From Candidatus Heimdallarchaeota archaeon (GTDB lineage Archaea; Asgardarchaeota; Heimdallarchaeia; JABLTI01), in the NCBI GenBank assembly GCA_018238155.1, contig JABCTZ010000032.1:5034-29033 (forward strand): DNA of 24,000 nucleotides, read 5' to 3'. Both the position numbers and the translations under genes were made by a program. Position 1 is the first letter of the stretch. Each line of letters begins with the position of its first letter. The notes beneath the pieces are model-generated. The model worked only from the letters and a program-made list of their open reading frames with translations, made no database searches and was not told where the DNA came from. This document shows, piece by piece, positions 1 through 22,710 of this stretch.

Positions 1-422
1 TTACTGAATTCTTCAAGTAAATCAATTTCTTGAATGTCTTCATCCACGAAATCGAGAATTGGTAGAACGAAAGAATCTCCATTTCGTATCTCAGATGCTC
101 TTTTTTCATTTATTTTTCCATCTTCATAAATTAATACGGGATGATCGGCTGTAGTTGTAAAAGATCTGTTACTAATCAAATCGAATTTTATTAAATGATT
201 TGGGGTTGGAGTTTTGATTACATCAAGAATATTTGTTACCACAACTTTTCCCTTTAAGCTATCAAAAGAATGCACTTTGATATTTCTTTTTGGTTGTTTT
301 TTAATTTTAACCATTTTTTCTTCTGTTTCATTTTCAAATTCCTTTTCATATAGTTCTTTGATTTTTATTCGTTTTACTTCACTTTCGATATCCACTAGAA
401 CTTCAGTATCTCCTGGAAAACA
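1..422 (-). mobile_element. Intein (N-terminal splicing region, truncated by the window edge) inserted in PolD DP2
   Basis: After the conserved DP2 motif HAAKRRN (Asn codon 425-423) the frame continues with CFPGDTEVLV (Cys1 codon 422-420; intein block A). It then gives ...RSFTTTADHPVLIYEDG (TxxH, block B; His codon 143-141) instead of the expected DP2 catalytic CDGDED. 140 intein residues are visible. The C-terminal junction lies outside the window. Confidence 0.85.
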
Positions 423-3113: not shown

Positions 3114-3258
3114 TTCATCAGTTGCAATTAATTCCAATTTACACACTCAACAATTTTTCGTTCAGAATATATCCTATCACAATGGATAGGCATTTTGGAT
3201 AGAGAGAGGTTGCTTTAATAATAATGGTACTATTTCCAACAGTACCATTGTATTATAA

Positions 3259-4842
3259 TTATTTCACAAGAATTGCCGCTACTCCTTCGATTATTCCATT
3301 CGAAACTATAGATGGAATAAAGCCGAATAGTATTAGCGCCAACGCTAGTAGAATTCCAATAAATGTCGTTATTGAAATATCATTATTTACATCTGATATT
3401 CCTGTCGGAATTTTCTGTGATTTATTTAATATTATGGATTTTAGTACGAACATATTACATATTAGTAATAATAAAACCACCACTCCAATTAGAATTCCAA
3501 ATATTAGATAATCGGTTTTTAGGAGTGAATAAATGATCATAAACGTAGTCACTCCACCAAAAGTTGGAAATATACCTATATTTGACAATAAACTAACTGT
3601 GAAGATGAAACCTGAAATTGGTAGTTCTTTTCCTACACCTCTCAATTGGTTTAAATCGTAGCTTCCTCCATTAGCACTGGCAAATTTCTCTATACAAATG
3701 AAGCTTAGAAAAATTGTTGCAACAACATTTATCATATGCAAGTAACCATAACCAAGACAATCCTGTAACAATTTTACTTCTGCTAGTCCCTCAATAATTA
3801 CTAGTCCATTAAATGATAAAGTTGTCAACACAATTCCAATATTGACAAATGTTGTATAGACAATAATTTTCATTAGATTGCTATCTTCTTTTTTGAGTAA
3901 CTGTCCTATAATGAGGAGAATGCCCTCAAATGCTGTTACAAGCCCTATTCCTGCAATAATAATGGAGTAATTTGTGCCTGGAAATATTGTTGGATTAAAG
4001 ATGTTATTTAGTATCCTAAAAATTGAGAATACTGCGGTTATACTTATGAAACCAGTTGTTATTATTTTCATTCCAGTACGGGCGCTTTGGATCGTTGAAT
4101 TTGTCCAGATGTTTAGCAAAAATAGATTAGCAAAAATACCTAAACTAATGATTACTAAAGCAATAATAAAATAGATTACTAAATTCAGATTTTGCAGTAA
4201 ATCAGCATTAAATAATTTATTTTCAAGTATGTATGCAAAATTCAAGCTACCAAATATTCCATAAGTTAGAACAACTGCTAAGAGGAGGAGAGCGATTGCA
4301 AAACCAATTGTCATATAAGCTTTTACTCCACCTACTCGTAAGTCTTCCTTTTTTCTGTCGAAAGTAATTAATAATATTAATGACAAACCAATAATAACCC
4401 AAGAAAGAAATAAAGTAAAGAAATCATACGTTAGTAATACTCCATTTATTCCAGAAATAAGCAAGAGGAAAAAGCTAACATAGATTGGTGCATTTTGTTG
4501 TCCTCTTATTTTCGAGGTTTCATAGATTAACACAAATATCAATATGATATTTAAGAATAGCAATAACCAAGAAGATACGCCATCGCTTCTAAATTGCACT
4601 CCTGTTGGAGGAGCATATTCAACACCAAGTGATGTATCATATACACCATAGATAATTTTTGTTGTGCTTGCTTCTACTCGAGAAATAATTGCACCAAGAA
4701 CAGCTACTATTACAATAATTCCTGCAACAGCAATTTCCCCGGAAAAACTCTTCAGCCATTTTCGTAAACCGAAAATAATCATTCCAAGTAAGAAGGGTAA
4801 TAATATTGGTATTAAGAGAATTATATTTACTGCAACCGCCAT
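3259..4842 (-). CDS. Polytopic membrane protein, NuoN/NuoM/MrpD-like antiporter-type subunit (divergent)
   Basis: 527-aa ORF that is hydrophobic throughout. The segments LLTYDFFTLFLSWVIIGLSLILLITF and LGIFANLFLLNIW...ITAVFSIFRI are collinear with the TM5 and TM7-8 motifs of the proton-antiporter M family. Its ATG at 4842 abuts the TAA of the upstream gene (4843-4845). Confidence 0.7.
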   Translation of the reverse strand: MAVAVNIILLIPILLPFLLGMIIFGLRKWLKSFSGEIAVAGIIVIVAVLGAIISRVEASTTKIIYGVYDTSLGVEYAPPTGVQFRSDGVSSWLLLFLNIILIFVLIYETSKIRGQQNAPIYVSFFLLLISGINGVLLTYDFFTLFLSWVIIGLSLILLITFDRKKEDLRVGGVKAYMTIGFAIALLLLAVVLTYGIFGSLNFAYILENKLFNADLLQNLNLVIYFIIALVIISLGIFANLFLLNIWTNSTIQSARTGMKIITTGFISITAVFSIFRILNNIFNPTIFPGTNYSIIIAGIGLVTAFEGILLIIGQLLKKEDSNLMKIIVYTTFVNIGIVLTTLSFNGLVIIEGLAEVKLLQDCLGYGYLHMINVVATIFLSFICIEKFASANGGSYDLNQLRGVGKELPISGFIFTVSLLSNIGIFPTFGGVTTFMIIYSLLKTDYLIFGILIGVVVLLLLICNMFVLKSIILNKSQKIPTGISDVNNDISITTFIGILLALALILFGFIPSIVSNGIIEGVAAILVK

Positions 4843-6756
4843 TTAAATTCCTCCTCTAAATAGAATTGATACTAAGATGACGAAGAATAGAACCGCCCAC
4901 AGTATGATTCCTGCAGGAGCTTTCAATCTTGTCCAAGTAAAATAGTTGCTTAGAAATTTGAATGGTTTCAAAATTAGATAATTATTGATTTTTTCTAAAT
5001 ATAGCCCCTGTTCTATTACTGATTTCACCATTTTTGTTCCTCTGAAGTTTCTTATTGGAGTAAAGATTTTTCCGATTCCATCTCGGTAAGCGAAGAACGT
5101 CCCTGCAAGAACTAAGGGTACTATTACAAGCATTATCATTGATATAACCCAATTGCCGAAAATCGGAAAATCATACCCTAAATCTAGATTTTTATTTAAA
5201 AATAATTTGAAAAATCCCGGGGAAGAAGTACCAATAATGATCAATATGAATCCCGCAAAGCAAGACCATAATAGAACTAAACCTTCTGAAATCATTGACA
5301 GGATATCTATTGGTCTAATTGTGTACTCTTCATTCACGCCACCAAATAATATTTTCATTAATGACTTTCCTACTGCAAAAACAAGTACTATTGTTGCAAT
5401 CATTGCTAATATCATGAGAGCCATGCTTGATGGAACAAGGCTTGTTCGTAATGATTCAAAGATCATATCACGACTAAAGTAAGTGCTAAATGGAAACATT
5501 CCAACATAGCTTAAAATGGCAATAAAACCGAATATTTGTAAGATTGGAAATTGCTTTCCCAATCCGCCTATTCTTGAAATTTGCTTTGTTCGTAATGATT
5601 TGATTACCATTCCAAAGATAATAGTTAATGCAATGCTAGCTGCAGATCCAAGAATAAGATGATAATATGTTGCTAGATACCCTAATTCATTTGCTGCGCT
5701 TAATCCTAAAAATGTTAAACTCAATTGGAAGAGTGAAGTACCAGTCATTATTCTATTAATATTCTTTGATGAAAAAATCACCACTAAACAGGTGACCATC
5801 GTTGCTATCGCGGTCCACCCAATGATCATAAATGGTGCACTATTGAATAATTCAGTTTCAAAGTGCACTTCTAACCCTTTGTTTGAAAACATAGGAAAGA
5901 AAGCGCATATGATATAGAGACCTATATTACCCAAAGTGACTGAAATAAGAAATGAAGAAATCGGTAGTGGTGTTTTTGCCAAATCAGAATCAATTTCTTC
6001 TCCGGACAAGGGCCAAAGAAGTAATGGAAATTGTGCTGACTTAATGAGCGCACCAAGCACTATGAAGATTTCAATTAGCAATCTGGTATTAGTACTCGTA
6101 CCGCCAATAATTGTGTTGGGCGGTCGCATCCATGCAATCATTAACCTTTCATAAGTCAAAGTGTCGTATGCTTTTCCTATTAAACCAATTCCAATTATTA
6201 ATAGAATATCTCCAATGAAGTTAAATATGAAAAATCTTATAGCTGCTTTTCCAACTTTTTTCCCTTCTTCTCCTGATTTATTACTCCAATGTGAAATTAG
6301 GAAGAACCCTCCTAAACTTGCGATTGCAAAACCTGAAAACATCCACAATAGGTTATTTGAAAAGATTGCAAAAAGCATTCCACCTTGTGTTATTAGAAAG
6401 AAAAACCAATATTTTGTTTGATTTCTATCCCCTGACAAGTAATTGATAGAATAAAGACCTAGGAAAGCACTTAGGGCATTTATTAAACAAGTAAATCCAA
6501 CCGATAATTCATTAATATGTATCCCCAAGTAAATATTCGGTAACCAAAGGAAATATTGATTTTGATGTAAGTGCATTTGCCATATTAGTAGCAGAGAAAT
6601 TATTGATGTTGGAATCAAAATAACAATTACCAGAATCCAAGATCTTGTTTTCCCTTCTGCAACATACCTATCCTCTATTTGTGAAAGTCCTAATGCTAAT
6701 ATTGCTCCAATAAATGGTAGTAATATTGTTACCCAAGCAAGTGCAATACCATTCAT
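4843..6756 (-). CDS. Polytopic membrane protein, NuoL/MrpA-like antiporter-type subunit
   Basis: 637-aa ORF. NNLLWMFSGFAIASLGGFFLISHW, FIFNFIGDILLIIGIGLIG and GALIKSAQFPLLLW...KTPLPISSFLISVTLGNIGLYI align by eye with the NuoL motifs [29 protein letters not shown] and GAVGKSAQLPLQTWL...[20 protein letters not shown]. Confidence 0.8.
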   Translation of the reverse strand: MNGIALAWVTILLPFIGAILALGLSQIEDRYVAEGKTRSWILVIVILIPTSIISLLLIWQMHLHQNQYFLWLPNIYLGIHINELSVGFTCLINALSAFLGLYSINYLSGDRNQTKYWFFFLITQGGMLFAIFSNNLLWMFSGFAIASLGGFFLISHWSNKSGEEGKKVGKAAIRFFIFNFIGDILLIIGIGLIGKAYDTLTYERLMIAWMRPPNTIIGGTSTNTRLLIEIFIVLGALIKSAQFPLLLWPLSGEEIDSDLAKTPLPISSFLISVTLGNIGLYIICAFFPMFSNKGLEVHFETELFNSAPFMIIGWTAIATMVTCLVVIFSSKNINRIMTGTSLFQLSLTFLGLSAANELGYLATYYHLILGSAASIALTIIFGMVIKSLRTKQISRIGGLGKQFPILQIFGFIAILSYVGMFPFSTYFSRDMIFESLRTSLVPSSMALMILAMIATIVLVFAVGKSLMKILFGGVNEEYTIRPIDILSMISEGLVLLWSCFAGFILIIIGTSSPGFFKLFLNKNLDLGYDFPIFGNWVISMIMLVIVPLVLAGTFFAYRDGIGKIFTPIRNFRGTKMVKSVIEQGLYLEKINNYLILKPFKFLSNYFTWTRLKAPAGIILWAVLFFVILVSILFRGGI

Positions 6757-6759
6757 TTT

Positions 6760-7140
6760 TCAAACTTCCTCCTCAGTTAGAGTATTAGCTTCTTTGGTCT
6801 TATTTCCTTCTTGAATACTGAAATCGAAATCAAGCAGAGTTGATCCTTCATTAACCTCTCTCAATTTCTTGTCTAGACCAATCCCGATTATAACAAAAAT
6901 TGCGCTCACGATTATAATAAAAAATGATAGTGTTTGTGCAAGTGGGTCTGAAAAAGTAATACTTTGATTATTTGCTGCGCCAAAGGATAACAACAATAAA
7001 TTTACTGCCATTAAAAGAATAACAATACCAAATACTACCTTTAGGAATTTTTTTGCTGTAATCAAAGAATAGATTCCAATACAAAAAAGTATCATTACTG
7101 CTAATATGGTATATGGGAATGGTGTAGTCCAATCTAACAC
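6760..7140 (-). CDS. Small membrane subunit, NuoK/MrpC-like
   Basis: 126-aa ORF with three predicted TM segments. ILFCIGIYSLITAKKFLKVVFGIVILLMAVNLLLLSFG aligns by eye with NuoK [35 protein letters not shown]. The GTG start at 7140-7138 shares one base with the TAG of the upstream gene (7142-7140). Confidence 0.7.
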   Translation of the reverse strand: MLDWTTPFPYTILAVMILFCIGIYSLITAKKFLKVVFGIVILLMAVNLLLLSFGAANNQSITFSDPLAQTLSFFIIIVSAIFVIIGIGLDKKLREVNEGSTLLDFDFSIQEGNKTKEANTLTEEEV

Positions 7141-7466
7141 TAATAATATCTCCTTTCTTGTTGAGTTTGTCTTTCAGGTTGTTTTATTACTTCAAAATTG
7201 ACAAGATAATAGGAACCCATTATTGCTAAAGTGAGTATTATTAAGATTAGGAGTAAATCATATACTCTAAATGTCCAAAGATTTCTTCCTATTTCTTGCC
7301 CTAAAATTGAATAATTTACTTCTGTCTGATTTGGTCCTGAATAAAAGGAATCTTGATTTATCTCAAGAAAAACCAAGAAAAAGACCATTCCAAATAATCC
7401 TGCGGTGATAATACCTATGCCACGTACAAACCACTGATTTAATCGTTCTATTTTTGCTTCAGTCAT
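7140..7466 (-). CDS. Small membrane protein, possibly MnhB/MbhE-like subunit
   Basis: The ORF track gives 7140..7538, but that start overlaps the upstream gene. The internal ATG at 7466 is preceded by GGGAGAG, 6 nt upstream, and lies 17 nt after the upstream TAA (7486-7484). There are two TM segments. RNLWTFRVYDLLLILIILTLAIMG weakly resembles the R-x-x-D TM motif of MnhB-domain proteins. Confidence 0.5.
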   Translation of the reverse strand: MTEAKIERLNQWFVRGIGIITAGLFGMVFFLVFLEINQDSFYSGPNQTEVNYSILGQEIGRNLWTFRVYDLLLILIILTLAIMGSYYLVNFEVIKQPERQTQQERRYY

Positions 7467-7483
7467 TATTTCTCTCTCCCAGC

Positions 7484-7888
7484 TTAAAATCTCCTCATAT
7501 CTTTTTGTACTGTACGTTTGCTTCTCAGCTTGGACCAATCAATAACAGAAAGACAAATGAAAATAATCACCAAGATTGCTAAGATAAAAGGCCACAAATC
7601 AGCAAGAACTAAAACTTCAAACAGACCGTATAGTGGAAATGCAAGTAAAATAATAATCATTTCAAACACAAGTATGTAAACGGTGTATTGATATAATTTA
7701 TTTAAATGTTCATCTGAAATCTTTGTTGTTATTTTTCGATATTCCTGTGGTTTTTCTTCTACACCTTCTAGTTTTTGTTTAATTACTTTTCCAGTTATTG
7801 AAATAATTATTGCTGTTATAATCATAGCAGCTGCAAAACCAAAGGCCAATGCAACAATAATCGGCAAATCTTGCAATTGTAAAGACAT
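7484..7888 (-). CDS. Small three-TM membrane protein, first gene of the Mrp-like operon (family not recognised)
   Basis: ORF 7484..7900 in the track starts with GTG. An ATG at 7888 gives MSLQLQDLPIIVALAFG.... The layout is TM1, a charged loop of about 40 aa, then two TMs carrying buried acidic residues (VFEMIII, LADLW). It has no MrpE/F/G signature that I can recognise. Confidence 0.55.
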   Translation of the reverse strand: MSLQLQDLPIIVALAFGFAAAMIITAIIISITGKVIKQKLEGVEEKPQEYRKITTKISDEHLNKLYQYTVYILVFEMIIILLAFPLYGLFEVLVLADLWPFILAILVIIFICLSVIDWSKLRSKRTVQKDMRRF

Positions 7889-8071
7889 TATTCTTCCCAC
7901 TTGTTATTTCTCTATTATGCATTAGTCTACTCTATTTATTAGCTAATTGGTTCCTTTTGAAGTAAAATTTGCTGTAAATTTATTCCTTATTACAAAAGCT
8001 TTGATTAGAAGTTAACATTTGTTAATATCTGGTTTGTATAAATGTAATGTTGTAATAAAAAAATAAGCTCT

Positions 8072-9197: not shown

Positions 9198-9302
9198 GCC
9201 GGATTAGCTCAGTGGTAGAGCTCTCGGCTGTTAGAGGTTAACATTAACAGTCGACCTGCAGAAACCGGGTGGCCGCAGGTTCAAATCCTGCATCCGGCGC
9301 CA
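9198..9302 (+). tRNA. tRNA-Asn (anticodon GTT) with a 30-nt intron and genomically encoded CCA
   Basis: Hand-folded cloverleaf:
- Acceptor GCCGGAT (9198-9204) pairs with ATCCGGC (9292-9298).
- D arm GCTC/GAGC.
- Anticodon stem CTCGG (9223-9227) pairs with CCGGG (9265-9269), with one G-U pair.
- The loop is CT-GTT-A, with the anticodon GTT at 9230-9232.
- T arm GCAGG-TTCAAAT-CCTGC.
- The discriminator is G9299 and CCA is at 9300-9302.
The mature length is 75 nt after intron removal. Confidence 0.92.
9234..9263 (+). other. Archaeal tRNA intron at the canonical 37/38 position with an hBHBh' motif
   Basis: The central 4-bp helix is CTGT (9228-9231) with GCAG (9258-9261). It is flanked by two 3-nt bulges, TAG (9232-9234) and AAA (9262-9264). 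Both are cut after their second base (9233|9234 and 9263|9264). The outer helix is AGGT (9235-9238) with ACCT (9254-9257), closing a 15-nt loop. Confidence 0.85.
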
Positions 9303-10857: not shown

Positions 10858-11631
10858 TTATGTGAGTTTCACTACTTTCTGTCCGTTGAGTAACTCCTCG
10901 ACTTCGTTGATGGAAGTAGGCACAGCTGATATTTTATTGACTTTACTACAAAATTCAATATCTTTTTTAAATCCTAATTTAACTAATTTTTGCCCATGTT
11001 TTGTTTTCAATAATATTTGGAATAGCGATTGCTTTTCAAGCAATTTCTCAAAATGCTCTAGTTCAGCATCAATTTCTTTTGACAAAGATAATCCTGCTTT
11101 CTTGAATTCTTGTGCTATAATTAATCCGCCAATTTGATCTTCAGTAATTTCATTAGTTATTATTGTCCCTTCACTGTATGCGGGAATTATCACTATTGGA
11201 AAACTGTTTGTAGATAATGATTTGCAAATTTCCATAACTTTAGTAACCACTGCTTGAGCATTGATTGGTGAACCAATAATAATCACTCTTGATCCAATAG
11301 CTTCAACTGCTCTTTTTGATCCTGTTGATGATGTAAATGCTGCGCAATTATTTGATATCTCTTCTTGGTTGTTCATTTCAACAGGACTATTTCCATAATC
11401 AAATCCATTGAGCATTTCACAACCTCGTTCACCCATTAATAAACTATCAAATTCTTCTGCTGCTAAACGTGTGTCCTCAACTTCTAATGCAACATAAATT
11501 GTTGTTATTCCTTTACTCATTGCCACGGGTATCGTTGTACTTGCTCTGAGAGTATCAACAATGATTGCAATACCTCCTTTGCTAGCTGCTAATTTAGAAC
11601 CTTCATAATTTCCAAGAAGAACAATCGTCAT
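10858..11631 (-). CDS. comB: 2-phosphosulfolactate phosphatase (ComB) family protein
   Basis: The 257-aa ORF has IAIIVDTLRASTTIPVA, LLMGERGCEMLNGFDYGNSPVE and ITEDQIGGLIIAQ. These are collinear with the ComB family motifs (VxDvLRAstTi, GER.g....GFD.GNSP, ED...aG). Confidence 0.75.
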   Translation of the reverse strand: MTIVLLGNYEGSKLAASKGGIAIIVDTLRASTTIPVAMSKGITTIYVALEVEDTRLAAEEFDSLLMGERGCEMLNGFDYGNSPVEMNNQEEISNNCAAFTSSTGSKRAVEAIGSRVIIIGSPINAQAVVTKVMEICKSLSTNSFPIVIIPAYSEGTIITNEITEDQIGGLIIAQEFKKAGLSLSKEIDAELEHFEKLLEKQSLFQILLKTKHGQKLVKLGFKKDIEFCSKVNKISAVPTSINEVEELLNGQKVVKLT

Positions 11632-11913: not shown

Positions 11914-13014
11914 TTGACCTCGAAAGACGATATTCGACAATTTTTATTAGACAAGAAAGAATCAGAGATACTTGAATTACTAAAGAAAGATAAGACGAAT
12001 GTTCAAAAATTTATAATGGACATTGCAAGAAAAGATTCAGAATGGAAGTTTCGTAGAGATGCCGTTAAAATTTTAGGCAAAGCAGAAATTTCAGAATCAA
12101 TTGAACTATTAAAAGAAATATTATTGAAAGATCATCTTACAGTTTTGAGAAAAACTGCTGCAAAAGCATTGGGTAACCTCGGTGATGAAAAAGGAATACC
12201 TCCTTTACTTTCAGCTTTGCAAACATCAAAAGATCCTGCAATAATTGCTGAAGTATCATGTGCCTTAGGAGCACTCAAAGCTACTGATGCAGTAATTATT
12301 TTGGTAAGCATGTTACAATTAAATCCTGATGGTGAAATTAGAGAGCATGCCGCAGAAGCATTGGGCTTAATTGGTGATACAAAAGGTATTGACATATTGC
12401 TTGAAGCTTTAAATAATGACAAAGAGGATTGGGTAAGAGGGCGTGCTGCAGAAGCTCTAGGTTTAATTGGTGATACAAAGGTTGTTCCTGACTTAGTCAA
12501 AGCACTTGAAGATGACCAAGGAATCGGCGTCTCAGTTCGCGTTGCAACTGCTTTAGGTAGATTAAAAGATAAAAGCGCAATTGAACCCTTGAAAGTTTAT
12601 TTAGAAAAGGGTCAAAAGGTTGAAACGCGTAGAGCAATTGTTTATGCTTTAGGAGAAATTGGTGATAAGAAAGCTGCTGGTATATTTCTTAATTTATTAG
12701 AAAATGATGAAGATGCAACAATACGTTATTGGGCTTGCATTTCTCTTGGATTTATGCAATACAAGCGAGCTGCAAAGGTAATTGAGAGAATTCTATTAGA
12801 AGATGAAAGTGTTCGAGTTAGGCGTACTGCTGCCCTCTCTCTTGGTCAATTAGAACTCAAAACGAAGAAAGCTATTAACACACTTCTTACTGCTTCGAAA
12901 GAAGATAAAGATGAAGAGGTTCGAGTTAAGGCAAAAGAAACTATTAAGAAACTAGCAAAAACACATGGGTACAAAAATCAAACTGAGATGTTAAAAGATT
13001 TGGGCATAAAATAA
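11914..13014 (+). CDS. HEAT (PBS-lyase type) repeat protein
   Basis: The 366-aa ORF is built of repeats of about 31 aa, of the form (V/I)Rxx AAxALGxIGDxKAIxxLxxxLxD. AAEALGLIGDTKG/V occurs twice almost identically. The TTG start at 11914 is preceded by AGGAGG (11899-11904) with a 9-nt spacer. Confidence 0.85.
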   Translation: MTSKDDIRQFLLDKKESEILELLKKDKTNVQKFIMDIARKDSEWKFRRDAVKILGKAEISESIELLKEILLKDHLTVLRKTAAKALGNLGDEKGIPPLLSALQTSKDPAIIAEVSCALGALKATDAVIILVSMLQLNPDGEIREHAAEALGLIGDTKGIDILLEALNNDKEDWVRGRAAEALGLIGDTKVVPDLVKALEDDQGIGVSVRVATALGRLKDKSAIEPLKVYLEKGQKVETRRAIVYALGEIGDKKAAGIFLNLLENDEDATIRYWACISLGFMQYKRAAKVIERILLEDESVRVRRTAALSLGQLELKTKKAINTLLTASKEDKDEEVRVKAKETIKKLAKTHGYKNQTEMLKDLGIK

Positions 13015-13111: not shown

Positions 13112-14551
13112 ATGAATGTTCAAGAGCTATCCATAACTTCAGTTGGTATTGATGTTGGTACATCTACTTCACACATGGTTTTTTCTCGTTTACAACTAGT
13201 AAAACAAATGAGCCGTTCATCTAAAAAATTTGAAATAATAAATCGTGAGATAATATACAAAGGAAATATTTTTCTAACTCCTTTAGTTGATAAAGAGACC
13301 ATTGATTTTGAAAGATTATCGATAATTCTTAACGGTGAATTTAAAAAAGCCGGAATAAGAAAAGATGAAATTGATACTGGCGCAGTTATCGTTACAGGTG
13401 AAACCGCTAAAAAGAAAAATGCTGAAAAAATCGTTAGTATGTTAGCTGCAGAAGCGGGTAAATTTGTTGCTGCAACTGCCGGACCAAATTTCGAGTCAGT
13501 AATTGCTGCAATGGGATCAGGTGCAACAATCCGTGCGAAAGAACTTAAGAAAACTATTATGAATATTGATACTGGTGGGGGGACCTCAAACATTGCTGTT
13601 GTTTCACCTAATGGAGATATTATTGACACTGCATGCATTAACGTAGGTGGGAGATTATTAGTAACAAAAGGCTCTGAACTTGTATTAGAAAAATACGAAG
13701 ATGCCGCCAAAATTGTTGCTGATAGTTTGGGAATAGAATTAGTGATCGGTAAATCAATTGCTCAAAAAGATAAAGAAAGTATCTCAAAAGGATTAGTTGA
13801 AGCTCTTGTTGAAGTTATCACAAAGAAAGAACACATTTCTGAAATAGCTATGAAACTAATGATGACTCCTCTTTTAACTTTTGATGGAAAGGTTGATTAT
13901 TATTCCTATTCTGGTGGAGTAGCAGAATATGTGTTTGGAAAAACAGATGAATATTTTGATGATATTGGACAGGAAGTTGCCCGAGAAATTAAAAAACAAC
14001 ATAAAAAAGCTAAACTAAAATTACTCGAACCACTCGAGTTAATTCGTGCTACAGTTATTGGAGCGGGACAATATTCATTACAAGTTAGTGGTGCAACTAC
14101 TTTAGTAACAGAAGACAATGAATTTCCAATAAGAAATATTCCCGTTATTGTTCCTTATCTTCCCCAAGAAAATCCAACACCAGACCAAATCAAAGAAGCA
14201 ATCGACGTTGCCTATAAAAGGATTGATATGAAAGAAGGAGAAGCTCCTGTTGCGCTATCATTCCATAAAACAATTGGATTATCTTATGAACGTCTAAAAT
14301 CATTTGCTATGAGCATAGTAAGTGCTGTTCCAACAATTGTTAAGAATAAGCTACCATTAATTTTAGTGTTCTCGGATGATATTGGTAATAGTGTTGGTAA
14401 TGTTATGAAACGCGAAACAGAGTTGAAAACCAATATTATTTCAATTGATGAGCTTAATTTACGGGAAGGAGATTACATAGATATTGGTGAGCCAATGGCA
14501 AACAAACAAGTTGTTCCAGTAGTAGTAAAGACGCTTATCTTTCAGAATTAA
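13112..14551 (+). CDS. EutA-like ASKHA-fold ATPase (ethanolamine ammonia-lyase reactivase family)
   Basis: The 479-aa ORF contains ITSVGIDVGTSTSHMVFSRLQL..., DTGAVIVTGETAKKKNAEKI, FVAATAGPNFESVIAAMGSGA and IMNIDTGGGTSNIAVV...DTACINVGGRLL. These are collinear with E. coli EutA as I recall it (LLSVGIDIGTTTTQVIFSRL, SGAIIITGESAKTRNA, VVASAGPHLESVIAGRGAGA, LNIDIGGGTAN..., GTACLNVGGRLL). Confidence 0.8.
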   Translation: MNVQELSITSVGIDVGTSTSHMVFSRLQLVKQMSRSSKKFEIINREIIYKGNIFLTPLVDKETIDFERLSIILNGEFKKAGIRKDEIDTGAVIVTGETAKKKNAEKIVSMLAAEAGKFVAATAGPNFESVIAAMGSGATIRAKELKKTIMNIDTGGGTSNIAVVSPNGDIIDTACINVGGRLLVTKGSELVLEKYEDAAKIVADSLGIELVIGKSIAQKDKESISKGLVEALVEVITKKEHISEIAMKLMMTPLLTFDGKVDYYSYSGGVAEYVFGKTDEYFDDIGQEVAREIKKQHKKAKLKLLEPLELIRATVIGAGQYSLQVSGATTLVTEDNEFPIRNIPVIVPYLPQENPTPDQIKEAIDVAYKRIDMKEGEAPVALSFHKTIGLSYERLKSFAMSIVSAVPTIVKNKLPLILVFSDDIGNSVGNVMKRETELKTNIISIDELNLREGDYIDIGEPMANKQVVPVVVKTLIFQN

Positions 14552-17804: not shown

Positions 17805-19409
17805 ATGCAATATTTTGATAACCAAATAACAAAAAAATTAATAGTTAGCTTTTGTTTAATGGAAAGAAGAATGAGAAGGCATCAATCAATGACCACTACT
17901 ACAGAAGATAATAATTCAGAAGAAAAACCAATTCGAACTGTAACTACAGTCAATGATTTTTCAACTAAAAAACATAACAAATTCATATCAAATATTACTA
18001 ATAGAAATTGGTCAGCATATAGTTTAGATTTTGCCGTTGTTTTGTTATTAGTAGTTTTGGGATTGTTTATTCGCATTCTCTTATCTTACACCTTTCGAGA
18101 GCAATATGGCTTTGGGACTGACTCAATAATTTGGAATAGATGGTTGCACTTTGATATCTATAATCCTGTAGCAAAACAATATATACCAATCCGCGGTTTT
18201 GCTGATTTCGGTTATTATTATCATTCTTGGATTGAAGGGTGGTATAATCGCACCTGGTATCCCTACCAATGGCATGATGAATCAACTGTATTAGATTACT
18301 ATTCTTATCCACCTGTATTCATTTATTTCTTAGTATTTACTTGGCGTCCTGGAATGAGCAATTTGTGGATGGCTTTTCCAATGATTTTTGCTGATGCTGC
18401 CTGTGCTGGTGTTGTTTATCTAATATTAAAAGAATTATTCAAAGAAAAGAAAGGAAGAGCTATTGGACTTGTTGGTGGAATTCTTATGGTGATTGCGCCA
18501 ATAAATGTTATTTATGATGGTATCTACTGGCTAAATCCTGGTCCGGTTACGTTGGTAACAATGATTGCTTTTTATTTTGCTACAAAGAAGAAATGGTGGC
18601 AAGCATTCTTTTGGTTAGCAGTTGCTACTATGACAAAACAAAATGCCTTGTTTTTCACTTACCCAATGTTTATGTTTATGCTTGGTGAAAAGCTTAAGAA
18701 TAAAAAGATAAAAGATGCAATCGTCGAAAGTATAATGAATGCATTGTTGTTTGTAGGAGTGGGTCTCTTACTTTCCGTTCCTTGGATTTTTATTAGTCCT
18801 TACGAATATGTACGTCATATGCTTTTTCCAGGTAGACCCATAGAACTAAGGCTTACACCAATAAATCCTGTATCGAATGATTGCGTATCTTTTGCGAGAT
18901 CTTTACAGGAATTAGGTTTTCCGAATTGGATTTTAGCTTTAGCTTCATTTGGAAATTATTCTATGCTTTGGATGATTCTCTCAGCAAGTATAATTGCAGT
19001 ACTAATGATGTGGAGATCTTATACTGGAAAGATGGATGGTGTTGAATTTTATGAGTGGATAGCCATTTATATGATTTTTAGCCATATATTTATGCCTCGA
19101 GGTGTCTACAAATTCTATGTGGCATATTTTACTCCTGTAATTTTGATTGCCTTTCTTGGGTCATTAACAAAACTTACTGAGAAAAAAGAATTTTTACCAA
19201 TTGGTTTAGTTCTAGGAAGTGCGCTATTTTTGGGTTTCAATGTTTGGTTAATAGTAATACCCAGATTTCCTGTTCCTTTCTTACTATTCATGACTGCTGC
19301 AGTTATCGCATTAATATTGTGGTTAAGAGCTTATTTCCGAGATTTAGCAGTAAAGAAAGGAAATTTACTCAGCACATCTTTCTATCTTGATAAGAAAATT
19401 GGTCAATAA
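17805..19409 (+). CDS. Polytopic membrane protein, GT-C-type glycosyltransferase-like (DUF2029/PMT-like)
   Basis: The 534-aa maximal ORF has alternative ATGs at 17859, 17871 and 17889. It has a hydrophilic N-terminus of about 70 aa, then at least 10 TM segments. An early loop reads ...GFADFGYYYHSWIEGWYN...YSYPPVFIYFLVF...AFPMIFADAACAGVVYLILKELF, typical of GT-C families. The start codon is uncertain. Confidence 0.55.
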   Translation: MQYFDNQITKKLIVSFCLMERRMRRHQSMTTTTEDNNSEEKPIRTVTTVNDFSTKKHNKFISNITNRNWSAYSLDFAVVLLLVVLGLFIRILLSYTFREQYGFGTDSIIWNRWLHFDIYNPVAKQYIPIRGFADFGYYYHSWIEGWYNRTWYPYQWHDESTVLDYYSYPPVFIYFLVFTWRPGMSNLWMAFPMIFADAACAGVVYLILKELFKEKKGRAIGLVGGILMVIAPINVIYDGIYWLNPGPVTLVTMIAFYFATKKKWWQAFFWLAVATMTKQNALFFTYPMFMFMLGEKLKNKKIKDAIVESIMNALLFVGVGLLLSVPWIFISPYEYVRHMLFPGRPIELRLTPINPVSNDCVSFARSLQELGFPNWILALASFGNYSMLWMILSASIIAVLMMWRSYTGKMDGVEFYEWIAIYMIFSHIFMPRGVYKFYVAYFTPVILIAFLGSLTKLTEKKEFLPIGLVLGSALFLGFNVWLIVIPRFPVPFLLFMTAAVIALILWLRAYFRDLAVKKGNLLSTSFYLDKKIGQ

Positions 19410-19521: not shown

Positions 19522-19938
19522 TTGGAGAAATCAAACGTGTCAGAAAATACTTCAGATGAAGGAAAGCATTTACTCGCTGTTTATGGCACATTAAAAGAAA
19601 ATTTTCCAAATTATTTCTACTACTTAAATCCCCTTGTACCAATATTTCGAGGGATGGTGCAGATACCGTATGAAATGTATTCGAATGGAGGATTCCCTCT
19701 TCTCTTTTCTTCTGATAAGCAAAATAAAATCTATGTGGAAATATTTGAGGTAACCGATAGAATTATCAAAAAAATCGATAGATTAGAAGGTGTTCCCCAT
19801 TTGTATTCACGAGCAACAATTTGGATAGACGAGATTAGTGTCAATGCATTTCTCTATGTAATAGAAAATAGAGAACCCACGGGTGAATTAATTGAAGATG
19901 GAATTTTCAAAAGAAAAGATGATGACCAATTCATCTAA
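19522..19938 (+). CDS. Gamma-glutamylcyclotransferase (GGCT / AIG2-like) family protein
   Basis: The 138-aa ORF has LLAVYGTLKENFPNY..., GGFPLLF, KIYVEIFEV (candidate catalytic Glu) and IDRLEGVPHLYSRATIWI. These are collinear with AIG2/GGACT-family motifs (YGTL, yP.l, V.GE.y.V, LD..EG...Y.R). The start is TTG at 19522 or GTG at 19537. Confidence 0.72.
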   Translation: MEKSNVSENTSDEGKHLLAVYGTLKENFPNYFYYLNPLVPIFRGMVQIPYEMYSNGGFPLLFSSDKQNKIYVEIFEVTDRIIKKIDRLEGVPHLYSRATIWIDEISVNAFLYVIENREPTGELIEDGIFKRKDDDQFI

Positions 19939-19943
19939 AATAA

Positions 19944-21188
19944 CTATTTAGTAGTTTTTATCCAATCTAATAATGCAACAATGCCATGACTTTTTTCATA
20001 ATCTAAAACTCTCTGAAAACCCCGACCGTATATATCCTCTCTCGAGAGAATCATTTCTGCTTGTCCTTGATAACCAAATCGCATAAGTACTTTATAGGAT
20101 ATCCATTCACAGAACCCTTCACGAATTTGTAAGGATTGGTTTAGCTCGGTTACATTTTCAGATTGCCATGCGTGCCCCATTTCATGGCTAATTGTACCTA
20201 AAGACATTTGCAAAGGTAAATGAGATTGAATGAAAATATTCCTTTTTTCTCCTTTTCTTTTGAAGAGACCGAGATTACGTCCTGCGGTAACTTCAGCTCC
20301 TGATTCTTTTATGCGACTGTCTAGTAATTTCTTTGAGATTAAGCGAAAATTAATAGCACTGTTAATTTTCAAACCTAAACCTAATAATCCCACTTCAGCT
20401 TTATCTACTAAAGATATCAATTGTTTTTCAGTAGTGATTGAGCTTCTTTGGCACTCTACACAAATTTTTCTTCCATCTGAAATTTGAACATATTGTAGTC
20501 CAACTGGACGACCACATGAGTCACAATGTGGAGCGAGTTTTTCACAGTGCTCACAATATATGCCTCTCTGGTATTTATAAGAAAAGTATCTACCAACAAT
20601 TGGTAAACCACAAGAAGTGCATCGTTGAGCTTTTTCCTGACATGAATAGCATATCTTTTTATCGTGGACCGTGAAAAGAAATTGGCTTGGCATTCCACAT
20701 AAATTACATCTTTCATAAATTTTGTAACAATAATCACAAACAACTTCATTGTCAAACACCCAATACGTTCCTACTATAGGGTTGTTACAGACACTACACC
20801 GCGGAGCTTTTGTTAAACATTGTTTACAAAGAACTTTCCCACGAATTTTTGTATATTTAACAACGGGTTGCCCACACCGCTCGCATTTTAGATATTTGTT
20901 CATACAATCATCACAAGCAATAGTTTTGTCAACAAAACGAGTGTAGCTCCCGATGACTGCTTTTCCACAGGTATCACACTTTGGGGATCTATTATAACAG
21001 ATTATGCACAAACCATCAACTGATTCATCTGAACCACCAATTATTGGTTTCTTGCAGCTTGTACATTTTAAAAGAAATTTGAAACAGTCGTTACAAAAGG
21101 TTGATCCGTCAGAGAAATGAATGTATTTACCTGTGATAACTTCATTACACGCATCACATTTCACTTTAATTATTCCAACAGATACCAA
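19944..21188 (-). CDS. Multi-zinc-module (LIM-like) protein fused to a DA1-like HEMxH metallopeptidase
   Basis: 414-aa ORF. Residues 11-246 form eight tandem CxxC-x15-19-CxxC modules. Residues ~300-414 read LPLQMSLGTISHEMGHAWQ...IREGFCEWISYKVL...IYGRGFQRVLDYEKSHGIVALLDWI. These are collinear with the plant DA1 peptidase region as I recall it (LPRLLTGSILAHEMMHAWL...VEEGICQVLAHMWL...YGDGFR...GL..TLDHI). The TTG start at 21188 is preceded by GGAGG (21200-21196) with a 7-nt spacer. Confidence 0.85.
   Translation of the reverse strand: MVSVGIIKVKCDACNEVITGKYIHFSDGSTFCNDCFKFLLKCTSCKKPIIGGSDESVDGLCIICYNRSPKCDTCGKAVIGSYTRFVDKTIACDDCMNKYLKCERCGQPVVKYTKIRGKVLCKQCLTKAPRCSVCNNPIVGTYWVFDNEVVCDYCYKIYERCNLCGMPSQFLFTVHDKKICYSCQEKAQRCTSCGLPIVGRYFSYKYQRGIYCEHCEKLAPHCDSCGRPVGLQYVQISDGRKICVECQRSSITTEKQLISLVDKAEVGLLGLGLKINSAINFRLISKKLLDSRIKESGAEVTAGRNLGLFKRKGEKRNIFIQSHLPLQMSLGTISHEMGHAWQSENVTELNQSLQIREGFCEWISYKVLMRFGYQGQAEMILSREDIYGRGFQRVLDYEKSHGIVALLDWIKTTK
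20451..21158 (-). repeat. Eight tandem zinc-binding modules (protein-level repeat, 25-32 aa each, 32 Cys)
   Basis: The modules start at residues 11, 42, 71, 102, 131, 161, 190 and 222. Odd modules are CxxC-x16-18-CxxC(F/M/Y/E)Kxxxx. Even modules are CxxC(G/K)xP-x12-CxxC-xxK/RxxK/R. They therefore pair into four LIM-like double fingers whose inter-finger linker is 6 aa instead of 2. Confidence 0.85.
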
Positions 21189-21301
21189 TGAGTTTCCTCC
21201 GGAAATTAGATTCCCAATTTAACAGAAAATAATCTGTACTAATAAATAACTCTTCAATTGAAAAAAACTTTCTATTAAGGTAATATTTCAAGAGTCTTTC
21301 T

Positions 21302-21829
21302 TCATTTAATATATTTCAGTAATTCTTTGATAAATTCGTTAATTTTCTCACATTCACTTTGAAATTTGATTGGTATTAATTTGTCATAATTGGTGATGTA
21401 GGGAAGAATGACCATCTTAGGAAAAGATGCCGAACCCAATAATAAGATAACAGCTGCAACACCTAAAATCAACCATTTAGACCAATGATCAATAAATATA
21501 ATGCTAGCTATTGTTCCAAGAATAACAAGTATTGAACCGAATATTGTTGTACCAAACAATGAGCGAATTACCCATTGCCTTTTTTTACGTATTTTGGTAA
21601 ATGCTTCTTTTGCTCCTTGTGCTTCCCAAATTAAATCTATATCTTGAATGTTAAGTGAAATTGCTGCAATATAAGTATCAGTAATCTGAAGAGATGAAGT
21701 AATTGCCTCCTTGGCGTCATCTTTCGGCCAATTCTTTCTTCCAATGACAATAGAGAGATTATCAATAATTTGAGTGATATTCTCTTTTATGCCTCGAGAT
21801 AATTTCCTTTTGGTTCTTCTAGGGGACAT
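21302..21829 (-). CDS. Hypothetical membrane protein (soluble N-terminal ~95 aa, two TM segments, short C-terminal tail)
   Basis: 175-aa ATG-initiated ORF with TM segments SLFGTTIFGSILVILGTIASIIFI and WLILGVAAVILLLGSASF. No family recognised. Confidence 0.55.
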   Translation of the reverse strand: MSPRRTKRKLSRGIKENITQIIDNLSIVIGRKNWPKDDAKEAITSSLQITDTYIAAISLNIQDIDLIWEAQGAKEAFTKIRKKRQWVIRSLFGTTIFGSILVILGTIASIIFIDHWSKWLILGVAAVILLLGSASFPKMVILPYITNYDKLIPIKFQSECEKINEFIKELLKYIK

Positions 21830-22008: not shown

Positions 22009-22500
22009 CTAACGTTTGCTATCTCTAACTCCATGGACAAAGGTTCCAATAAAAGCACCCAGACCAAAGGTAAAAACACAATAAAGACCAATAACGAGAC
22101 TTGTAAGTGAAATTTGTCCAACGTTAATAAGAAATCCTCCTATACTGGCAGAAAATATTGCTTTTTCTATCACTCCAAATAAGAAGAAGATCAAAGTGAA
22201 GATCATTGCACTATAACTGGAATACCTGAATGAAACCAGAAAACTAAGTGTTTTATTTCTAAATGCAATAACAAACCCTGCAGGCAGACCATATAAACCA
22301 ATTATGAAATTCAATGCCCAGGGATTATCCATAACAATAGCTGCAAAGATGGATGTTATCGATGAAGAAATTGCTGTAATGATTGCAATAACAATAATCC
22401 AAGACCAAGGTGTTTTAATCTGTTTTCTTGCACCTGTTTGATATTCTTTGAACGCAACACTTTCCCTTAGATCAGTATTTTCTTCCATCAATTTTAGCAT
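22009..22500 (-). CDS. Hypothetical multi-TM membrane protein
   Basis: The track ORF 22009..22572 begins at a TTG. I prefer the in-frame ATG at 22500 (MLKLMEENTDLRES...) or at 22488. Four or five hydrophobic segments follow. No family recognised. Confidence 0.5.
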   Translation of the reverse strand: MLKLMEENTDLRESVAFKEYQTGARKQIKTPWSWIIVIAIITAISSSITSIFAAIVMDNPWALNFIIGLYGLPAGFVIAFRNKTLSFLVSFRYSSYSAMIFTLIFFLFGVIEKAIFSASIGGFLINVGQISLTSLVIGLYCVFTFGLGAFIGTFVHGVRDSKR

Positions 22501-22710
22501 CCAACATGAATAAATATGAAGGATTATTTGTATTCTTGTATCACTTTCCAAATTGAAACATACGACAAACAAAAATATTTTTACTGTAAAAATTATACAA
22601 GTATATATACTCCTATTTCTAATATAGTAGTGACAGTCTAGCTTAGAAACTAAATCGCAAACTCTTTCAAAAAAGAAAGATTTTAATTAGAATAGGAAGA
22701 AAAACGATTA

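Follow-up and report, generated by a model that had tools for sequence, protein, structure and literature searches.

In plants, the organ-size regulator DA1 acts as a peptidase that is switched on by ubiquitin, through multiple mono-ubiquitylation, and a C274Y substitution in its LIM-like domain abolishes its activity (Dong et al. 2017; PMC5322733). Work on plants has described the LIM-peptidase core of these proteins as four single zinc fingers and a peptidase (10.1101/2022.06.21.497003), and some authors in the plant field have called the DA1 family "plant-specific" (PMC4007552, PMC4432951). A LIM-like motif in bacterial (Roseiflexus) DA1 homologues had already been reported in a passage of Dong et al. 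2017 that cites Burroughs et al. 2011 (PMC5322733). Here we describe a complete gene for a 414-aa LIM-finger/DA1-like metallopeptidase on contig JABCTZ010000032.1 of a Candidatus Heimdallarchaeota archaeon. The window, to which all coordinates refer, is the whole stretch of 24,000 nucleotides analysed (contig positions 5,034 to 29,033). The gene lies at 19944-21188 on the minus strand, with a TTG start codon at 21188-21186 and a stop codon at 19946-19944, as read from the list of open reading frames and the translation. The architecture that it encodes is widespread in bacteria and was described previously, and the Asgard gene is a further member of this group.

Homology to DA1 was evident in both profile and pairwise comparisons. 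A profile of the Asgard proteins aligned by hhalign to a profile of 14 plant DA1 sequences with a probability of 98.7% (E = 2.8e-16). The alignment was collinear, with aa 130-413 matching DA1 171-527 through the LIM domain, then the LIM-like domain, then the peptidase, as far as the last helices. Numbering the eight finger modules of the protein M1 to M8 from the N-terminus, M5-M6 lie opposite DA1 171-223 (the canonical LIM domain) and M7-M8 opposite DA1 232-297 (the LIM-like domain with its DGRK(I/L)C.EC motif). The peptidase was aligned via HEMxHAW, EG(F/I)C and YG.GF, and Cys271 and Cys274 of DA1 fall opposite C222 and C225 of the window protein. BLASTP of the window protein against Arabidopsis DA1 gave E = 4e-12 at about 24% identity. 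The Arabidopsis protein, P0187 of the sequences collected here, was found with a 304-aa partial DA1 sequence, and this query was 100% identical to the database entry. Bacterial proteins of about 300 aa match the query at E values of 1e-35 to 1e-44 and carry PF12315; two relatives of this length are assigned by NCBI to Chloroflexota and named 'protein DA1'. Judged from these alignments, the initial annotation, which had placed the C-terminus in the DA1 family and likened the fingers to LIM domains, is correct at the level of homology.

The Pfam check proposed alongside that assignment gave a divided answer. For the window protein itself, the DA1-like model PF12315 scored 22.3 bits (E = 9.4e-5; gathering threshold 25) over aa 314-377 only, and the LIM model PF00412 scored 18.7 bits (gathering threshold 22.9) over aa 102-155, that is, modules 4 and 5. 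However, in an alignment of 15 orthologues (the window protein and 14 homologues, 13 of them at 59-92% identity and one at 35%), 12 of the 15 matched PF12315 at E<0.01 (best 8.6e-6) and 14 matched the LIM model at E<0.01 (best 1.3e-6). P0008 and P0011 also carry precomputed PF00412 matches. The homologue search itself returned 14 full-length orthologues at 59-92% identity and one at 35%. Because the window protein falls below the Pfam thresholds, has no 2-residue LIM junction and has no ubiquitin-interacting motif (UIM), it is best classed with the prokaryotic LIM-peptidases, outside the DA1 proteins proper. Its CxxC pairs stand directly N-terminal to a DA1-type HExxH peptidase, as they do in the Chloroflexota 'protein DA1' and in 149 representative clusters of the family. 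As aligned, the Asgard protein holds the full plant LIM-peptidase core together with four additional fingers, and no UIMs. It starts 10 residues before finger 1, which leaves no room for a UIM, and the alignment with DA1 begins at DA1 171, after the UIMs.

The lack of UIMs bears on an explanation in which the protein is a ubiquitin-activated peptidase that works with an Asgard ubiquitin system. Homology to DA1, with its activation by multiple mono-ubiquitylation (PMC5322733), favours this explanation, as does the knowledge that Asgard archaea encode ubiquitin-like systems (PMC9192718). However, besides the missing UIM and the short N-terminus, no ubiquitin, E1, E2, E3 or JAB gene was seen in the 24-kb window, and the bacterial relatives share the same core with no ubiquitin link evident for them here. 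We therefore regard this explanation as very unlikely. Since there is no UIM, we do not expect the protein to be activated through ubiquitylation in the way of the plant enzymes, and ubiquitin activation, to which the initial annotation pointed by analogy, is not implied.

The DA1-like gluzincin peptidase domain spans aa 251-414 (19947-20438, minus strand), as delimited with Pfam, hhalign and an AlphaFold2 (AF2) model, in which a helix is followed by a three-stranded sheet, the active-site helix and a C-terminal helical bundle. The motifs that had been quoted for it (LP....G.ISHEMGHAW, EGFCE, YGRGF and GIVALLDWI) are all found in the translation, with HEMGHAW at 335-341, EGFCEW at 357-362 and YGRGF at 387-391. 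The zinc-binding and catalytic motif HEMGH (aa 335-339, with H335, E336 and H339) is encoded at 20172-20186 on the minus strand, where it had been placed. E357 of EGFCEW (20118-20120, minus strand) is the predicted third zinc ligand, and the models locate it at the start of the helix that follows the active-site helix. Gluzincins have this HExxH-x17-E spacing, in which E357 falls on the next helix, and this accounts for weak Pfam M1 matches, which cover aa 331-372 and were seen in 12 of the 15 orthologues. AF2 modelling of aa 186-414, comprising M7-M8 and the peptidase, gave a pLDDT of 93.8 and a pTM of 0.90, and this region is thus modelled as one rigid unit. A sequence search of the PDB with the whole protein returned nothing significant (best E 0.1, the AccD zinc ribbon), and NCBIfam held no family for the window protein or for its bacterial relatives P0018 and P0039.

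H335, E336, H339, E357 and G358 are invariant in the 15 orthologues. Across 150 diverse family members H335, H339, E357 and G358 are again invariant, and E336 is at least 90% conserved. This pattern argues against a role as a non-catalytic zinc-finger scaffold (a pseudo-peptidase), an idea to which we give hardly any credence, even though some plant members of the family are inactive, as DAR4's LIM-peptidase domain could not replace that of DA1 in cleavage of BB (bioRxiv 10.1101/2022.06.21.497003).

The protein contains 33 Cys residues, 32 of which sit in 16 CxxC motifs, and these form eight modules, CxxC-x(17,15,17,15,16,15,18,17)-CxxC, joined by seven linkers that are all 6 residues long. 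This count from the translation bears out the arrangement first described. The distal arm (20640-21158, minus strand), as defined by CxxC positions, invariant Cys, AF2, Foldseek and hhalign, comprises M1 (aa 11-35, 21158-21084), M2 (aa 42-64, 21065-20997), M3 (aa 71-95, 20978-20904), M4 (aa 102-124, 20885-20817), M5 (aa 131-154, 20798-20727) and M6 (aa 161-183, 20708-20640), all read on the minus strand. The proximal pair, M7 (aa 190-215) and M8 (aa 222-246), is encoded at 20451-20621 on the same strand; it is the counterpart of the plant DA1 'LIM-like' domain by hhalign, and carries a conserved SDGRKIC.EC motif. All 32 finger Cys are invariant in the 15 orthologues, down to 35% identity. Among the 150 diverse family members, C222, C225 and C243 of M8 are invariant and conservation of C246 reaches at least 90%; no Cys of M7-M8 or of the second CxxC of M6 falls below 90% conservation. 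The 18/17 spacing of the proximal pair, with its 6-residue linker, is retained in most relatives. The invariance of the Cys and catalytic residues among the orthologues shows that the feature is real and strongly constrained, far beyond chance.

Structural comparison supports the view that the modules are LIM-type fingers. In the full-length AF2 model (pLDDT 84.9, pTM 0.53) each module forms two beta-hairpins and then a short helix that begins at the second CxxC, a treble-clef-like layout, and the model is consistent with well-folded beads along a flexible string. When the array was compared with the PDB by Foldseek, the top six matches were all tandem LIM proteins (E 2.2e-5 to 1.8e-3, probability 0.96-1.00), which points to a LIM-type treble-clef fold. 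PINCH1 LIM4-5 (7d2t) ranked first with E = 2.2e-5, followed by paxillin LIM2/3 (7qb0), Lhx, LMO2 and FHL2 (2miu). When tested against the LIM ligand pattern (CxxC-x16-23-(H/C)xxC followed by CxxC-x16-21-Cxx(C/H/D)), any two neighbouring modules supply the eight ligands as Cys, with spacings of 15-18 that are at or just below the LIM range. The two-residue spacer between finger 1 and finger 2 of a LIM domain is absent, all 7 of the 7 spacers having 6 residues. The junction F-C-N-D-C-F-K-F-L-L-K-C-T-S-C, which had been likened to that of LIM domains, is indeed present in the translation. On module 8, the Pfam zf-dskA_traR model scored 26.4 bits (cut-off 24.9). A homologue search with the array alone (aa 1-250), whose sensitivity was word-limited, recovered the same family only, with no such array on other domains.

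How the fingers pair is less clear-cut. Two alternating subtypes had been proposed, and this holds for the odd modules, which are coherent (mean non-Cys BLOSUM score of 20.0 for odd-odd comparisons, compared to 1.7 for odd-even), but not for the even modules (0.7 for even-even). The odd/even division ranked among the best 4 of 70 labelled partitions (equal to 35 distinct splits), and the odd modules have in common an I.G.Y motif as well as an aromatic residue that follows the last Cys. Homologue alignments to the profile begin at aa ~10, ~68, ~128 or ~178, module counts are mostly even, and the alignment with plant DA1 pairs M5-M6 and M7-M8. A search of the PDB with two-finger profiles weakly favoured the odd+even order (FHL2, E = 7e-5) over even+odd (FHL1, E = 0.016). 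In the best pair-profile match an odd module was aligned to a half-LIM of FHL2, followed by the inter-LIM linker, and the Pfam LIM model falls on M4+M5. Firm pairing into four double fingers, as the initial annotation had it, is not supported, because every linker has 6 residues and, in the AF2 model, each module ends in a helix of its own. We conclude that these are LIM-type fingers duplicating in twos, with four compact LIM domains as a possible packing.

The breadth of the family was established by an exhaustive profile search of 1.84 billion representatives (E<=1e-3, clusters at 50% identity). This returned 2,678 clusters, 211 of them at E<=1e-30, and most are unnamed. All Asgard orthologues fall in one cluster (P0007), and the next best match is just 35% identical. 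Every named relative outside Asgard archaea and plants is bacterial, the named members belonging to Chloroflexota, Caldilineaceae, Xenobia, Spirochaetia, Leptospirales, Selenomonadaceae, CSSED10-310, Wallbacteria and Riflebacteria. The CSSED10-310 protein (MBN2056769.1) has 8 modules, and the Wallbacteria protein is called 'LIM zinc-binding domain-containing protein' by UniRef. A peptide-pattern scan of GTDB species genomes, which is biased to close relatives, found the orthologue in 11 Asgard genomes, and a literature search for Asgard archaea with LIM or DA1 found no report linking them.

Module counts and linkers were taken from the 149 best non-Asgard representatives. Four and six modules were the most frequent counts (42 and 51 clusters), and one, two, three, five, seven and eight modules occurred in 4, 11, 10, 16, 5 and 10 clusters, respectively; none had more than eight. 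A 6-residue linker was present at 454 of 576 junctions (79%). The finger array grows and shrinks mostly by two-finger steps in the family, and the survey of copy number that had been called for gives a range of 1-8 in which eight-module bacterial forms exist. The idea that a count of eight is unique was ruled out by the 10 further 8-module clusters. Nor does the architecture stand as unusual or eukaryote-associated, as first thought, given 2,678 clusters, named bacterial relatives in which as many as 8 modules are joined by this 6-residue linker, and the earlier report of the bacterial form. As a separate observation, P0041, P0160, P0173 and P0177 have CxxC-x16-HxxC fingers, in which ligand 3 is a His preceded by an aromatic residue, like LIM finger 1, and keep the 6-residue spacers.

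The descent of the Asgard gene was examined in an unrooted neighbor-joining tree of 202 sequences and 225 columns (M7 to the C-terminus) with 100 bootstraps. The Asgard and plant clades were each recovered in 100/100 replicates, and a grouping of Asgard with plants in 0/100, so that the Asgard proteins lie neither within the plant clade nor beside it as its sister. Nearest to the plant proteins were the bacterial-type sequences P0160 (Riflebacteria), P0173 and P0177 (49/100), of which only P0160 is named. Among the sequences collected here, Arabidopsis DA1 scored up to 62 bits against bacterial-type proteins of about 300 aa, compared to 35-40 bits against the Asgard proteins. No specific Asgard-eukaryote affinity is apparent from these sequences, and the proposed link of a eukaryotic architecture to an archaeon is supported by neither the tree nor the scores of plant DA1. 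Most likely, the Asgard clade acquired the gene horizontally from bacteria and is not ancestral to the plant genes. A different reading, in which the Asgard LIM-peptidases are an old archaeal lineage instead of a recent import from bacteria and their LIM arm was a forerunner of eukaryotic multi-LIM adaptors, or else in which the protease is wired into Asgard ubiquitin/ESCRT-type machinery without UIMs, has in our view only a slim chance of being right. If either were true, the protein would join the eukaryotic-signature-like proteins as one not listed before, and its regulatory protease function could be tested.

Taking the evidence together, we consider it reasonably probable that the protein is a soluble cytoplasmic gluzincin endopeptidase encoded by a gene of bacterial origin, with M7-M8 as part of the catalytic unit and M1-M6 as a flexible arm that binds substrates or partners. 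The catalytic unit would comprise aa ~186-414, where H335 and H339 would bind zinc together with E357 as the third ligand, and E336 would serve as the catalytic base. By analogy with the LIM-like domain of plant DA1, M7-M8 would pack rigidly on the peptidase domain and probably be needed for its active conformation. M1-M6, as LIM-type treble-clef fingers on short 6-residue helical linkers, may act as an arm, flexible and multivalent, to which peptides or proteins bind; in this way substrates or partners would reach the active site, where cleavage would be limited and site-specific. A soluble, cytoplasmic location is predicted from the Asgard proteins, in which no hydrophobic segment was found (maximum KD19 1.1-1.45). 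In sum, the anatomy of the protein, its conservation, its homology and the spread of its family are shown by the data; its enzymatic activity, the tasks of the fingers, its location and the direction of gene transfer are inferred.

Several points weigh against this proposal. The PF12315 score, besides being below its threshold, is no better than those for DUF6782 (21.9 bits, cut-off 27) and Peptidase M1 (17.4 bits, cut-off 27.7). Foldseek comparison of the peptidase part with the PDB gave marginal matches, the best being the M61 aminopeptidase 7xyo (E = 0.014, TM-score 0.37), with anthrax LF and YbeY as other marginal neighbours; because no solved structure is close, the fold class and the ligand assignment rest on motifs and the model. 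Peptidase activity of the prokaryotic members is itself predicted. The origin is also open to challenge, as the nearest neighbours of the Asgard clade in the unrooted, 225-column tree were unlabelled or bacterial at 22/100, and the direction of transfer is tentative because most family representatives carry no taxon label. The gene neighbourhood gives no functional clue, no neighbour family being shared with 13 bacterial loci. Finally, the protein is basic (pI 8.8), with a net charge of +7 on module 4, and since GATA fingers are also among the structural matches, the arm might bind nucleic acid.

This last point is the starting point for a reading in which the basic array binds DNA or RNA and the zincin cleaves bound or cross-linked proteins, in the manner of SprT/Spartan/Wss1. 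Apart from the charge, it draws on the Foldseek matches to GATA DNA-binding fingers (E 0.015-0.1), on one orthologue with a weak WLM match (E = 0.005), on weak RecO and DksA/TraR zinc-finger matches, and on one orthologue that is named 'recombinational DNA repair protein' in JGI. However, LIM proteins ranked above GATA whether structures or sequences were searched, the WLM and RecO matches were far below threshold, and the homologous plant enzyme cleaves proteins that it binds directly (PMC5322733). In addition, no conserved DNA-repair neighbours were found, and the N-terminal signal or anchor in 46% of the representatives fits poorly with a role at chromatin. A protease targeted to nucleic acid is therefore quite improbable, and we retain the protein-binding arm.

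The N-termini of the relatives raise the question of a link to membranes. A hydrophobic segment, either a signal peptide or an anchor, precedes the first finger in 68 of the 149 non-Asgard representatives (P0038-P0186; 46%). Such a segment would put many zinc fingers at the membrane or outside the cytoplasm. Burroughs et al. 2011 reportedly described prokaryotic LIM domains as partners of membrane-associated peptidases. For the Asgard protein, these observations could mean that it acts at the membrane, as many bacterial relatives seem to, and that a soluble protease is recruited by, or processes, two small transmembrane proteins whose genes lie immediately upstream and share its strand (21302-21829 and 22009-22572). 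Both genes are present in 11 of 11 Asgard loci. However, the adjacency is little informative because synteny within the clade spans more than 10 kb on both sides. No neighbour family recurs at any bacterial locus, and neither of the two proteins could be matched to a known family. The peptidase gene seems to have its own expression signals, as suggested by an AT-rich gap of 113 nt and a Shine-Dalgarno-like site of its own; the site, GGAGG at 21196-21200 (minus strand), was read directly from the sequence 8-12 nt 5' of the TTG start and is a putative ribosome-binding element. The MVSVG N-terminus that follows this start is kept among the aligned orthologues. We consider a dedicated partnership with these membrane proteins unlikely, and keep to a soluble cytoplasmic enzyme.

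The locus has the same order in 11 Asgard loci: the two transmembrane genes upstream on the same strand, a convergent GGACT/AIG2-like gene, a gene for a 534-aa membrane protein and additional genes. As no neighbour family is common to the bacterial loci, this order reflects close relatedness. Functional inference from an operon, including one from the convergent GGACT gene, was rejected, since the synteny is confined to the Asgard clade, and PADLOC gave no defence-system match for the peptidase gene or its neighbours. Genes for a ubiquitin system, for defence or for repair were not seen in the window. The GGACT/AIG2-like gamma-glutamyl cyclotransferase gene (19522-19938, plus strand; Pfam E = 5.6e-18) converges on the peptidase gene with the stop codons 5 nt apart, an adjacency retained in 9 of 11 Asgard loci and in 0 bacterial loci. 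The two small predicted membrane proteins (minus strand) have 175 and 187 aa and no Pfam, NCBIfam or PADLOC match. The 534-aa multi-pass membrane protein (17805-19409, plus strand; 11 of 11 Asgard loci) has no Pfam match, its sole match being a weak one in NCBIfam (E = 1.8e-4) to a cell-surface glycopolymer formation protein family.

The window is archaeal, as first proposed: it encodes the large subunit DP2 of PolD and an intron-containing tRNA, and the peptidase gene is 95% identical to a gene on a contig of a Heimdallarchaeota metagenome-assembled genome. The PolD DP2 gene (3-3146, minus strand) runs off the left end of the window and encodes more than 1,048 aa. A match to an intein-splicing domain at aa 922-1029, after the match to the catalytic domain, scored 35.0 bits against a cut-off of 35.8 and suggests an intein. 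The tRNA gene (9198-9299, plus strand; Rfam RF00005, 60.1 bits) has a 31-nt insertion directly after the anticodon loop, consistent with an archaeal intron, and an anticodon GUU (Asn) read from the alignment; ARAGORN found no tRNA in the window. Elsewhere, a cluster at 3259-7900 (minus strand) encodes Mrp/Nuo-type membrane subunits. It comprises two proteins of the Proton_antipo_M type (527 and 637 aa), one that is NuoK-like (126 aa) and a pair of small membrane proteins. A full-length EutA-like protein of the ethanolamine ammonia-lyase reactivase family (13112-14551, plus strand; E = 2e-137) adjoins a PBS-lyase HEAT-repeat protein (11914-13014) and a ComB-like 2-phosphosulfolactate phosphatase (10858-11631), and no other eut genes were recognised in the window.

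The wider meaning of these results is that the LIM-peptidase core of DA1, four fingers and a peptidase, was invented by prokaryotes, and its relatives, still uncharacterised, number in the thousands. LIM or DA1 matches in Asgard genomes should consequently not be counted as eukaryotic signature proteins. The conserved, soluble, 8-finger Asgard form offers a compact prokaryotic model for the control of a DA1-type active site by a proximal finger pair and for the choice of substrate by a finger array.

How does the Asgard protein compare with the systems already described? With the bacterial LIM-peptidases it shares the finger type, the 6-residue linker, the 18/17-spaced proximal pair and the peptidase, at 30-37% identity; E values reach 1e-44 among 3-finger forms and 1e-95 among those with eight fingers. 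It differs from them in that the Asgard proteins form their own tight clade, contained in one 50% cluster, and have no N-terminal hydrophobic segment. Their eight fingers are at the upper end of a range in which 4 and 6 are common.

With plant DA1/DAR proteins it shares the collinear order of two fingers (LIM), two fingers (LIM-like) and a peptidase with HEMxH...EG.C...YG.GF, as well as DGRK(I/L)C.EC in the last finger and a linker of 6-7 residues within the LIM-like pair. In contrast to the plant proteins, it has the four extra fingers M1-M4 and no UIMs, a spacer of 6 rather than 2 residues between M5 and M6, and Cys instead of His at ligand 3; it also lacks the insertions that plant proteins have between sheet and active site. 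At about 24% identity, the Asgard proteins are also not sister to those of plants in the tree.

Protein-binding eukaryotic tandem LIM adaptors (PINCH1, paxillin, LMO2 and FHL2) gave the best matches to the array, by structure (E 2e-5 to 3e-3) and by profile (FHL2, E = 7e-5), and both are strings of treble-clef zinc fingers with an aromatic residue after the last ligand. The Asgard array, however, lacks the 2-residue intra-LIM junction and the His ligand and is fused to a protease; global superposition is poor (TM-score 0.3, root-mean-square deviation about 9 Å), and the Pfam LIM match is sub-threshold. The M1/M61 gluzincins of clan MA(E) likewise have HExxH followed 17-18 residues on by a Glu ligand in the next helix. 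Similarity to them is marginal (E = 0.014, TM-score 0.37), and the Asgard domain is much smaller and set in a different surrounding architecture. The Asgard peptidase is not a member of the M1 or M61 families.

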